DNA from: an uncultured cyanobacterium
Lineage (GTDB): Bacteria > Cyanobacteriota > Cyanobacteriia > Cyanobacteriales > Nostocaceae
DNA: 64,000 bases
NCBI GenBank assembly: GCA_963706595.1
Contig: OY970166.1
Location: 1,408,001 to 1,472,000, forward strand
Direction of reading: 5' to 3'
Positions 7,697 through 10,254 of the stretch are shown here, piece after piece. The notes beneath the pieces were generated by a model. The model ran no database searches. It was not told the DNA's origin and was given only the letters and a program-made list of their open reading frames with translations. The position numbers and the translations under genes were made by a program. The first letter of the stretch is position 1; every line of letters starts with the position of its first letter.

Positions 7697-8060
7697 AATG
7701 AGAGGTGTTTTTTTAACGCAGAGGTACGCTGAGTTGTTTACTAGTGCTATGGATTTGGTGAGTAATTCCGTATTTTCATCATGACTTTAATTAATCTTTA
7801 ATTTATCTACCAGTAATTACAGATAAGATATCTGGAACAAGATGTAATTGCCTAGTTAAATTTACTCTGTTTAAAATGTGGCACGTATTAGCATCTGAAC
7901 TCTCTGCGCTTGGTGCGTGAGCAAAATTCCTATTCTCAATCAGCAACATCGGATAATTTATTGCTTGGTATTCCCCTCAGAATGAATCCTGCAAATTTTG
8001 CTGATAGTCTGGGCAATTTATGTATCAACATATATAGCAAAATTCACAGAGCAACATAAT

Positions 8061-8630
8061 ATGAAGAATGCTTGGTGGTATCAAATTTCAACAATTAACC
8101 TAGCTTTGATAGCAGTAATTCCGACGCTGGTATTTTCAGCATTCTCTTACCAAGCCATGGCTGAAGATCCAGGATTATGTTTTATGATTACCTCTTCTGG
8201 CAGAATGGTGCGCTTGGGGAAGCTTTGCGGTGTAACGAAGACACCTCTCCCCAAGAATAACAGCAAAATTTTTCGGGTTCCCATCAAACGCCGCCTGGGT
8301 AGAACTCCTGTGATTGATGTCACCTTCAATCACAACAACACTTTTGAAATGATTGTAGATACTGGCGCTCATGGTACTCTAATTACTGCCAAAATGGCCA
8401 ATACTCTGCAACTCCAGGCTACAGGAATTATGCAAGCTCAAATTGCGGATGGGACTCAAGTCCTATTTCCCACTGGTAAGGTAAATTCTGTGGCTGCGGG
8501 TGGAGTTGTGGCTAATAATCTAGAAGTGGCGATTGCCCCAAAAGCCGGGGTAGGATTACTAGGACATGATTTCTTTGGCAACTACGACATCAAAATTCGC
8601 GAAAAAGACGTAGAGTTTTACTCCCGCTAA
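8061..8630 (+). CDS. Retropepsin-like (clan AA) aspartic protease with N-terminal signal/anchor
   Basis: MIVDTGA catalytic motif, GLLGHDFF C-terminal motif; N-terminal hydrophobic stretch and C.M....G...L..LCG motif; ATG at 8061 preferred over TTG at 7998. Confidence 0.8.
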   Translation: MKNAWWYQISTINLALIAVIPTLVFSAFSYQAMAEDPGLCFMITSSGRMVRLGKLCGVTKTPLPKNNSKIFRVPIKRRLGRTPVIDVTFNHNNTFEMIVDTGAHGTLITAKMANTLQLQATGIMQAQIADGTQVLFPTGKVNSVAAGGVVANNLEVAIAPKAGVGLLGHDFFGNYDIKIREKDVEFYSR

Positions 8631-8875
8631 TCCTAATTTAGAATTTTAACTCCCATCTGTACTTTGCACTTTACATATATAAAAGCCATTATTTAACAGA
8701 CTTAAAATATTCTTCAAACCAGACAATAATCACTATTATAGGTCTTTTTAAAACTAGTTTTGTCCTTGACTTTCTTGAATTGCCTGAATAAAAATAGCAG
8801 TAACAGTTAAGCGAAGCGAGCTTAATTGTTAATCAACTAAATCTATTAGCAATCAATGCTTGAGGAGCAAATATT

Positions 8876-9109
8876 ATGGCAAATATCACTCTTTCTGAAC
8901 TCAACAATGCTGGTGCAGAATTATTTCAAGATTCTGAAAGTTTCTTGAATGAATTGAAAGATGTGGATGCTATCTCCGGTGGCAGCAGCTACAATCAAGG
9001 CTATGTCAGCGATATGTCCACATTGACTAAGTTGGCTGAGGCGTTTGTGACAACTTATGCTATTGGTCATGTGACTGTCCTAGCTAAGTCATTCAGCTAT
9101 GGATACTAA
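8876..9109 (+). CDS. Double-glycine-leader peptide precursor 1 (bacteriocin/RiPP-like)
   Basis: 36-aa leader ..ELFQDSESFLNELKDVDAISGG; GAGGAG RBS; one of four tandem paralogs. Confidence 0.8.
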   Translation: MANITLSELNNAGAELFQDSESFLNELKDVDAISGGSSYNQGYVSDMSTLTKLAEAFVTTYAIGHVTVLAKSFSYGY

Positions 9110-9267
9110 TAGCTGTAATCGCTTCATTTAACTAGTATTTCTGCACGATAATCAATTGATTTTGTGCTGTACTAGATGGCTGTTCAGGGATTAAATTTAC
9201 TAACAATAATCCCTGAAAGCTAGTCAGGTTGAAAATTATCACAACAAATGCTTGAGGAGCAAATATT

Positions 9268-9504
9268 ATGGCTAACATCATTCTTTCTGAACTCAACAAT
9301 GCTGGTGTTGAATTATTTCAAGATTCTGAAAGTTTTCTGAATGAATTGAAAGATGTCGATTCCATCTCCGGCGGCAGCACCGACGTATACGCTGGCTATG
9401 TAAGCGATCTGTCCACATTGACAAAGTTGGCTGAGGCATTTGTGACAACTTATGCTATTGGTCACGTGACTGTCCTAGCCAAGTCATTCAGCTATGGATA
9501 CTAA
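9268..9504 (+). CDS. Double-glycine-leader peptide precursor 2
   Basis: Paralog with the same RBS context (CTTGAGGAGCAAATATT-ATG). Confidence 0.8.
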   Translation: MANIILSELNNAGVELFQDSESFLNELKDVDSISGGSTDVYAGYVSDLSTLTKLAEAFVTTYAIGHVTVLAKSFSYGY

Positions 9505-9621
9505 TGGCTTTAATCGCTTCATTTAACTGATAGCTTTTCAGGGATGAGATTTACTCGCAATCATCCCTGAGAGCTAATCAAATTGAACATTGTCGTCACA
9601 AATGCTTGAGGAGCAAATATT

Positions 9622-9858
9622 ATGGCAAACATCACTCTTTCTGAACTAAATAATGCTGGTGCTGAATTATTTCAAGATTCTGAAAGTTTCTTGAATGAAT
9701 TGAAAGATGTAGATTCCATCTCCGGTGGTAGCACCGACACCTACGGCGGCTATGTCAGCGATATTTCTACATTGACTAAGTTGGCTGAGGCATTTGTCAC
9801 AGTTTATGCAATTGGTCATGTTACCTACTTAGCCAAATCATTTAGTTCTGGATACTAA
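9622..9858 (+). CDS. Double-glycine-leader peptide precursor 3
   Basis: Paralog with the same RBS context. Confidence 0.8.
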   Translation: MANITLSELNNAGAELFQDSESFLNELKDVDSISGGSTDTYGGYVSDISTLTKLAEAFVTVYAIGHVTYLAKSFSSGY

Positions 9859-9973
9859 TGGCTTTAATCGCTTTATTTAACTGATAACTTTTCAGGGATG
9901 CTCCCCTCACAATCATCCCTGAAAGCCAGTCAAGTTGAAAACTATCATCACAAGCACTTGAGGAGCAAATATT

Positions 9974-10204
9974 ATGGCAAACATCACTCTTTCTGAACTA
10001 AACAATGCTGGTGTGGAATTATTTCAAGATTCTGAAAGTTTTCTGAATGAATTGAAAAATGTAGATTCCATCTCCGGTGGTAGCACCCATCAACCCTATG
10101 TCAGCGATATGTCCTTCCTGACTAAGCTGGCTGAGGCGTTTGTCTTCACTTACTCCATTGGTCATGTTACCTACTTAGCCAAGTCAGTTAGTTCTGGATA
10201 CTAA
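9974..10204 (+). CDS. Double-glycine-leader peptide precursor 4
   Basis: Paralog with the same RBS context. Confidence 0.8.
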   Translation: MANITLSELNNAGVELFQDSESFLNELKNVDSISGGSTHQPYVSDMSFLTKLAEAFVFTYSIGHVTYLAKSVSSGY

Positions 10205-10221: not shown

Positions 10222-10254
10222 AGATCCCCGACTTCTTAAAGAAGTCGGGGATCT
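10222..10254. terminator. Palindromic repeat, probable bidirectional terminator
   Basis: AGATCCCCGACTTCTT-A-AAGAAGTCGGGGATCT between convergent genes; near-identical copy at 58655-58687. Confidence 0.65.

Follow-up and report, generated by a model that had tools for sequence, protein, structure and literature searches.

How might a set of small double-glycine (GG) leader peptides be matured and exported when their surroundings encode no means of doing so, and what would the products be for? This question is raised by an array of four such genes at positions 8876..10204 of a 64,000-nucleotide stretch (the window; positions 1,408,001 to 1,472,000 of contig OY970166.1, assembly GCA_963706595.1) from an uncultured cyanobacterium of the Nostocaceae. 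We find that the array is a real, conserved satellite of a catalogued, chemically uncharacterised system of peptides that are made on ribosomes and modified after translation (RiPPs). New here are a shared predicted operator, a split between Lys and Gln at a catalytic position, and a short list of candidate modification sites. In the reading that we prefer, with a probability of roughly 45%, the four genes are satellite precursors of a distant cluster, whose enzymes would dehydrate and export the peptides in trans, and the products would pack via a hydrophobic helix at the cell surface or in the sheath.

Open reading frames (ORFs) were found at the exact coordinates of all four genes, on the + strand. 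Precursor 1 (8876..9109, 77 amino acids (aa)) has a 36-aa GG leader (8876-8983) and a 41-aa core, and follows a ribosome-binding site (RBS) block at 8860-8875. Precursors 2 (9268..9504, RBS block 9252-9267) and 3 (9622..9858, RBS block 9606-9621) each have 78 aa with a core of 42 aa, and precursor 4 (9974..10204, RBS block 9958-9973) has 76 aa with a core of 40 aa. The 16 nt preceding the ATG, with a GAGGAG RBS within, are identical in all four genes. Every leader has 36 aa and ends in ISGG, and is followed by a hypervariable segment (SSYNQG, STDVYAG, STDTYGG and STHQP) and a conserved, Cys-free core. In all these respects, including four tandem paralogues of 76-78 aa with a common RBS and cores of about 41 aa, the initial annotation of the locus proved accurate. 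The repeat units take in the spacers, with start-to-start distances of 392, 354 and 352 nt. Pooled pairwise Nei-Gojobori estimates, whose pairs are not independent, put dN/dS at 0.09 in leaders and at 0.14 in the conserved core across 31 satellite genes (8 genomes). The array is therefore not a product of chance; its genes are intact and under purifying selection.

Scans of the four peptides against Pfam and NCBIfam gave no real match. The best-matching named homologues are Nodularia proteins, followed by proteins of further heterocyst-forming genera. An AlphaFold2 model of precursor 3 predicted a helix over residues 47-73, with a predicted local distance difference test score (pLDDT) of 80-83 over residues 51-70, in a model of low overall confidence (whole-model pLDDT 63.6, predicted template modelling score 0.30). 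A Foldseek search of the PDB with this low-confidence model gave no match at E≤0.001. The cores contain 11-12 Ser/Thr residues each, with a net charge of 0 to -1, a grand average of hydropathy of 0.16-0.43 and a hydrophobic moment of at most 0.31, and are mildly hydrophobic and weakly amphipathic. Their calculated monoisotopic masses, unmodified, are 4469.18, 4508.27, 4482.22 and 4431.18 for genes 1-4. Typical bacteriocins are cationic, unlike these neutral to slightly acidic cores.

The initial annotation had seen no modifying enzyme, C39-peptidase transporter or HlyD in the window. This was borne out by a tblastn search of the window, for which kinase, lyase, C39 domain, HlyD and peptidyl-prolyl isomerase (PPIase) of this genome served as queries: only two generic ABC-ATPase matches came up. 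The label "orphan", on the other hand, is true of the window only, as the genome holds 11 further paralogues, ten of them beside enzymes. Together the 15 paralogues comprise the four in the window, ten at C1:3295664-3299881 and a singleton at C1:5213125-5213382. The main cluster (C1:3295664-3312482) lies 1.88 Mb from the window array. There, the genes that come after the ten precursors encode a kinase of the APH family (C1:3300016-3301197; PF01636; LxmK model E 5e-23, 81.7 bits, far below the cut-off of 315) and then a HopA1-family protein (C1:3301445-3302551; PF17914, E 5e-60). The opposite strand encodes a PPIase, HlyD, a 1016-aa C39 ABC transporter (C1:3308778-3311828) and an IS630-like helix-turn-helix (HTH) protein (C1:3311850-3312482). 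M16 peptidases lie upstream. The gene order recurs in congeners and in further genera. The C39 ABC transporter that adjoins ten paralogues has its Cys and His in place, in support of the earlier proposal of secreted GG-leader peptides processed in trans. In two genomes (L026 and L031) the transporter is apart from the enzymes, and separation of the parts therefore already occurs in this system.

None of the 15 paralogues has Cys in its core, and a scan of the genes neighbouring the main cluster found no Cys decarboxylase, cyclase (LanD, LanX/LanC) or dehydrogenase. Without Cys or a cyclase, no lanthionine or aminovinyl-cysteine (AviCys) can form. No immunity-like gene was seen beside the window array or the main array, where a small or hidden one is possible. 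A UbiA prenyltransferase and an HAD hydrolase between lyase and PPIase (L002:5489-7299) were set aside as tailoring enzymes, being present at 1 of 56 loci, in this genome only. The main array ends in two genes (L002:918-1163 and 1618-1881) that are of fixed, divergent type in almost every main cluster examined among the congeners. The GG of one is shifted by six residues, and the other has a shortened leader and a more hydrophobic core; their peptides may be minor or nucleating subunits.

Judged by its residues and its distribution, the kinase/lyase pair looks active and tied to the peptides. R206, K237, R247 and Y254 of the main-cluster lyase match R187, K219, R229 and Y236 of CaoY, at spacings of 31, 10 and 7 against 32, 10 and 7. 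In the available text of Liang et al. (2022, PMC9486802), R187, K219 and R229 of CaoY are required by mutation and Y236 is named as the conserved base. A profile of the lyase lines up with the lyase of PDB 9DK1 (chain B) across these catalytic motifs (E 2e-11). We fetched 56 kinase/HopA1 loci, from 63 matches across 41 genomes. The lyase Lys was kept at 37/37 loci with a GG-leader peptide nearby (all four residues at 36), and Gln stood in its place at 19/19 loci without one; the two types form separate clades in a quick tree. In the kinase, K53, H217-x-D219-x-K221-x-x-N224 and D250 are invariant in all 37 peptide-linked sequences. Fifteen lyases of one subclade (support 95) all lie beside helical KSF/KSY cores, with two more such loci just outside it, and other lyase subclades adjoin other core types. 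Besides this pair the genome has only one other kinase/HopA1 pair, of the Gln type, so that a single intact pair is left to serve the 15 precursors. That second pair was rejected as the modifier: it has no precursor nearby, its lyase has Gln for Lys, and its kinase loop has Asn for Lys.

The precursor-less Gln-type clade, which includes L004:9063-11425 (G000 C1:5461062-5463424) and 18 other loci, adjoins genes that we labelled by eye as phylloquinone (men) genes, a menE-like gene at 15/19 loci and a thioesterase gene at 17/19. HopA1 is present in 151/151 genomes of the family, and the six single-HopA1 genomes checked were all of the Gln type. Perhaps the Gln-type clade represents a pseudo-lyase/kinase pair that is near-universal in heterocystous cyanobacteria and has a role other than in RiPPs. 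Elsewhere, at L021:12263-13288 and L025:4968-6008, an aldo/keto reductase gene comes right after the lyase in clusters with Ser/Ile/Val-rich, beta-strand-like cores, and could reduce dehydro residues there. At L049, L062, L064, L065 and L066, the kinase/lyase genes are accompanied by alternating (A-B-A-B) hydrophobic GG peptides, like those of two-component bacteriocins.

One of three links between the satellite and the main cluster, besides the kept lyase Lys and the co-occurrence of core and HopA1 given below, is a palindrome, AGACA-N15-TGTCT. Four loci of this genome have it 152-157 nt ahead of the ATG: in addition to the satellite and the singleton, these are the first gene of the main cluster and a small, divergent ORF that precedes the main array. 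In the window it lies at 8721..8745, with one mismatch in the right arm, as a predicted transcription-factor site in common with the main cluster and the singleton. Perfect sites number 7 in the 5.57-Mb genome, 3 of them at these genes. As control spacings of 11 to 19 also gave 2-8 sites each, the raw count is not enriched; the position alone is. In many genera the palindrome lies approximately 150-158 nt before the first array genes, against a background of 6/3500 gene starts. With at most one mismatch it was present at 39 of the 185 peptide genes of the fetched loci, nearly all of them first genes of arrays of the helical or Ser/Ile-rich core type. It was absent from all of the loci L046-L066 with other core types. 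In 16 upstream regions selected for having the palindrome, it is followed by 20 nt ungapped, an invariant TTGA and an A-rich -10 region. The corresponding promoter-like element in the window (TTGACT, 18 nt, AAAAAT; 8766..8795, + strand), 20 nt past the palindrome, is a consensus match only, from a search that found 9 sites against 5.5 in shuffled sequences. From this arrangement we infer a position suited to an activator. No description of the motif was found in the literature covered, which leaves out most subscription journals.

Two perfect intergenic palindromes at C1:2397803 and C1:3734343, with no peptide gene seen downstream, are possibly further regulon members, or chance. The IS630-like paired-HTH protein beside the C39 transporter (210 aa, L002:13850-14482, - strand) stands alone without a catalytic domain and looks like the domesticated DNA-binding domain of a transposase. 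It is single-copy in this genome and only a candidate for the regulator of the palindrome. Homologues occur in 132/151 family genomes, including all 73 that contain the core, and are therefore too common for this co-occurrence to discriminate.

A core-only profile matched 73 of the 151 family genomes, all 73 of which have at least two HopA1 genes, and matched none of the 36 single-HopA1 genomes. Within genus g39, a one-HopA1 genome lacks the core and both two-HopA1 genomes have it; the lone congener without the core (G004) is also without this lyase subclade. Conservation was then counted in the 22 homologues below 55% identity, out of 238 profile matches among 432 distinct stored sequences; this profile-based count leans toward the 15 hand-picked rows of alignment A2. 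Kept in these distant homologues is a K-x-x-E-x7-I-x7-K-S-F-S pattern, whose seven residues occur, in order, in 86, 77, 77, 72, 86, 77 and 81% of them. Below 55% identity the two serines of KSFS are the only well-kept hydroxyl residues, and of the Ser/Thr residues of the window cores these last two serines alone are deeply kept; the well-kept K and E lie 20 and 17 residues earlier. A His-to-dehydroalanine staple (i, i+7) was dropped, His being kept in only 27% of the distant homologues.

The satellite locus itself is kept in 9 of 10 congeners, either between the ModA/TauE and Gfo/Idh genes or adjoining one of them, and fully assembled arrays have 2-5 copies. Its promoter, RBS and hairpins are conserved across congeners, and no modifying enzyme was found in or near it at any of the 9 congener loci examined. 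Base differences among satellite genes are 8% inside one genome and 12% from one genome to another; against the main-cluster genes and the singleton they are 21-27%. The closest relative of 25 of the 32 satellite genes lies in their own genome. These figures indicate that the locus is old within the genus and still duplicating or homogenising, in agreement with the tandem duplication suggested at the outset.

Further predicted elements surround the four genes. Stem-loops follow gene 1 (9178..9221, z = -3.13), gene 2 (9529..9579, z = -2.60) and gene 3 (9888..9926, z = -2.74) in the spacers of the + strand, and are predicted to stabilise the mRNA. Under a strict 7-bp arm rule, a stem lies 3' of 41/84 related genes, with six complementary arm variants across loci; the rule itself selects pairing, and only the variety of the arms is informative. 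A perfect, terminator-like hairpin of 15-16 bp (10222..10254, z = -6.83) separates the array from a convergent Gfo/Idh/MocA gene. Directly 5' of the array, a retropepsin-like aspartic protease of secreted type is encoded at window 7998-8630 (+ strand). We rejected it as a dedicated processing enzyme, as it is present at 5/9 congener satellite loci only, at one of them partially. At a distance from the window, a second PPIase/HlyD/C39 locus (L005:5296-12935) has three small ORFs of 83-113 aa with a different leader type, without kinase/lyase. Just 5' of the main cluster, L001:4181-11939 (- strand) encodes PqqD, transglutaminase-like, nucleotidyltransferase, HPr-kinase-like and glycosyltransferase proteins and split ABC genes; the set resembles lasso-peptide maturation, with no cyclase among the scanned proteins.

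Taking these results together, the satellite peptides are probably modified by the dedicated kinase/lyase pair, and the following route can be drawn. Its starting point is observed: the satellite genes are intact and kept by purifying selection, and they have their leader, core and promoter architecture in common with the ten precursors beside the enzymes. Very probably, one regulator acting on AGACA-N15-TGTCT would switch on the satellite, the main array and the singleton together. It is likely that the APH kinase then phosphorylates core Ser/Thr residues and the HopA1-type lyase eliminates the phosphate, giving dehydroalanine or dehydrobutyrine; the two serines of the C-terminal K-S-F-S would be the best candidate sites. 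With a confidence equal to that in the shared regulator, we expect the C39-ABC/HlyD system to cut after GG and export peptides of 40-42 aa. The last step is a guess that we would put at even odds if the others hold: the peptides would serve, like EbfG, as bulk surface or matrix material, with the constant helix for assembly and the variable N-terminus outside. Fifteen copies, the predicted mRNA-stabilising stems, the constant helix, the charge of 0 to -1 and weak amphipathicity of the mildly hydrophobic cores, the absence of a visible immunity gene, and the EbfG and nostolanthin precedents (discussed below) favour such a bulk surface role over a diffusible antibiotic, only modestly.

Several points weigh against this reading. 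Transcript data, from one metatranscriptome (0.04 share), amounted to six short, low-depth contigs, mostly of relatives plus a hairpin repeat, and speak neither for nor against expression. The EL of the leader stands at -11/-10, against the -13/-12 consensus quoted by Wang et al. (2011), a deviation that the main-cluster paralogues share. No characterised Cys-free substrate of a LanK/LanY pair was found in the literature searched, and the placement at the cell surface is a guess by analogy. The Lys/Gln split is one evolutionary event, not 56, as the two sets form separate clades in the quick tree, so its counts are not independent. The co-occurrence of core and HopA1 is likewise largely inherited, and 42 of the 115 genomes with at least two HopA1 genes are without the core. 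Finally, distant homologues have lost most of the Thr positions seen in the window peptides, so KSFS could be a structural cap instead of a modification site.

Among other explanations, the one that survives best keeps the dehydration and export in trans and makes the products membrane-active antimicrobial or allelopathic agents, the variable N-terminus setting the target range. A GG leader with C39/HlyD is the classic bacteriocin/microcin route in the text available of PMC3140520, the predicted helix of 27 residues is long enough to span a membrane, and other same-leader loci carry alternating two-peptide arrays resembling two-component bacteriocins. Microcins may also be toxic and fibre-forming at once, with a hidden immunity gene (PMC13188072, as far as its available part goes). 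We nevertheless consider this explanation unlikely, given cores that are neutral to anionic and weakly amphipathic, no immunity-like ORF seen beside either array, and a target-facing part that is nearly constant across the 15 copies.

Less likely still is the export of the satellite peptides without modification, as plain EbfG-like proteins, with the enzymes serving only some main-cluster peptides or another target. The lack of an enzyme at all nine congener satellite loci would agree with this, as would the drift of most Ser/Thr positions in distant homologues and the statement, in the available text of Eyles et al. (PMC8153245), that Family 1A as a whole has no conserved Ser/Thr/Cys. Against it, the leaders of satellite and main-cluster precursors hardly differ, and in models it is the leader that class V dehydratases recognise (PMC9486802, available text). 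In addition, the core was never found without a second HopA1 gene (73/73), and core types track lyase subclades.

It is rather improbable that the mature peptides act between cells as signals of development or density, or that fragments do so which the neighbouring aspartic protease or the M16 peptidases would release. A dedicated, shared predicted operator, the retropepsin-like protease just upstream, and the action of peptidase-containing transporters in heterocyst development (HetC; PMC4997328, in its available part) fit a signal. Fifteen near-identical copies are not needed for one, and neither the patchy occurrence of the aspartic protease (5/9 loci, one partial) nor the presence of the core in only about half of the family genomes is what it would predict; no conserved sensor kinase was found in the clusters. 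It is very improbable that the satellite is a silent or redundant precursor reservoir which gene conversion maintains and which by itself has no role: the transcript search gave no evidence of expression, the window palindrome has one mismatch and the copy number varies from 2 to 5, yet dN/dS is 0.09-0.14, the locus persists in 9/10 congeners with promoter, RBS and hairpins conserved, and a base difference of 23-27% implies that main-cluster genes are not overwriting it.

Returning to the preferred reading of dehydrated satellite precursors at the cell surface, a more specific form of it is a long shot: a Cys-free, structural-polymer RiPP. The kinase/lyase pair would turn the conserved KSFS serines into dehydroalanine, and conserved lysines of neighbouring helices would add to them at high pH, forming a lysinoalanine-linked surface coat. 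The high pH would arise around photosynthesising filaments, after export, and 15 co-regulated copies would give bulk together with mixed variable N-terminal tips, altering what phages, parasites and partners meet. If true, class V chemistry would here be put to a new use; otherwise the array is a satellite of a catalogued cluster type. In either case, the core subfamily occurs in about half of the sampled Nostocaceae genomes (73/151), often in many copies. Precursor arrays at remote loci escape neighbourhood mining, yet the 25-bp palindrome finds them. The nature of the subfamily's product is now directly testable: the enzymes are named and have their active sites intact, core masses have been predicted, and there are two candidate serines as well as a candidate operator.

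We then compared the peptides with known systems. Class II bacteriocins and microcins have a cognate immunity gene adjoining the precursor. For the peptides studied here no such gene was seen at either array, and no curated family in Pfam or NCBIfam matched. In the Atlas, their neighbours are cyanobacterial clusters without names, which were labelled "bacteriocin" automatically and have no Pfam family in common. For Nodularia, only cryptic bacteriocin clusters are noted in the accessible part of PMC3610870. No characterised product of the peptide family was found in the literature, peptide strings in main texts included, within a coverage that omits most subscription journals.

The initial annotation had spoken of an uncharacterised family; that the family is uncatalogued is not supported, as near-identical peptides stand in the Family 1A table of Eyles, Vior, Lacret and Truman (2021, PMC8153245), a family of 570 cyanobacterial peptides in 183 clusters. 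The following comparison is with those parts of the paper that were available. Its whole supplementary file contains TKLAEAFV 33 times, KSF 150 times and KSY 65 times. By eye, one of the Nodularia peptides in the table agrees with homologue P0107, whose identity to precursor 3 is 78%; through it the window peptides join a network defined by short GG-leader peptides at least 40% identical to its members. A conserved GG leader, several non-identical precursors per cluster (as in the window array) and the same listed core are common to both. A HopA1/phosphotransferase pair, which Family 1A precursors adjoin, is next door to the ten paralogues sharing the upstream element, not to the window locus, and the window array, being far from any HopA1 gene, would not be listed by a neighbourhood search. 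Cores of Family 1A are called highly variable, with no conserved Ser/Thr/Cys, whereas the window subfamily has a conserved K-x-x-E...K-S-F-S helix; the kept K, E and KSFS mark a subfamily and not an exclusion from the family. The shared palindrome is not mentioned in the available text, and no product is characterised there.

The likeness to class V LanK/LanY (CaoK/CaoY of cacaoidin; PMC9486802, available text) lies in the APH kinase and the HopA1 lyase with four catalytic residues at nearly the same spacing as in CaoY, which the window array has in trans only. Class V synthesis further involves a core Cys for (methyl)lanthionine or AviCys, with a decarboxylase and cyclase; the window-family cores have no Cys, the main cluster has no decarboxylase, cyclase or dehydrogenase, and the kinase scores below the LxmK cut-off. 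By these features the window peptides are not lanthipeptides and resemble only the dehydratase half of class V synthesis. With the group II bacteriocin clusters of Wang, Fewer and Sivonen (2011, PMC3140520) it is the main cluster alone that shares the long-type C39 transporter, HlyD, SurA-like rotamase and nearby M16 peptidase; the available part of that survey mentions no kinase or phosphotransferase and gives no function.

Two systems with a role at the cell surface come closest to the last step of our route. EbfG1-4 of Synechococcus elongatus (Parnasa 2016, PMC4997328; Frenkel 2023, PMC9981879) are products of tandem small GG-leader genes and are exported and matured by a C39 transporter, PteB, and their surface and matrix role is the model for that step; here, a transporter with Cys and His lies beside the paralogues. 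They differ in that the available texts describe no kinase/lyase for EbfG and in that the window cores are predicted to be helical and are shorter, about 4.5 kDa against 6-7 kDa. Mature EbfG is reported in the part of PMC4997328 available to be without homologues in other cyanobacteria. In the corresponding part of PMC12267927, GG peptides of Anabaena PCC 7120 are proposed to be EbfG-like, with HopA1 unmentioned. The second system, nostolanthin (bioRxiv 10.64898/2026.08.14.744816, available part), involves a class II LanM, a Nif11 leader and a Cys-Dhb link, whereas any link between the Cys-free window peptides would need Lys or His. It is nevertheless close in being a GG-leader RiPP that a cyanobacterium secretes: it has a free dehydroamino acid, joins into covalent oligomers when the pH is high, and acts at the cell surface.

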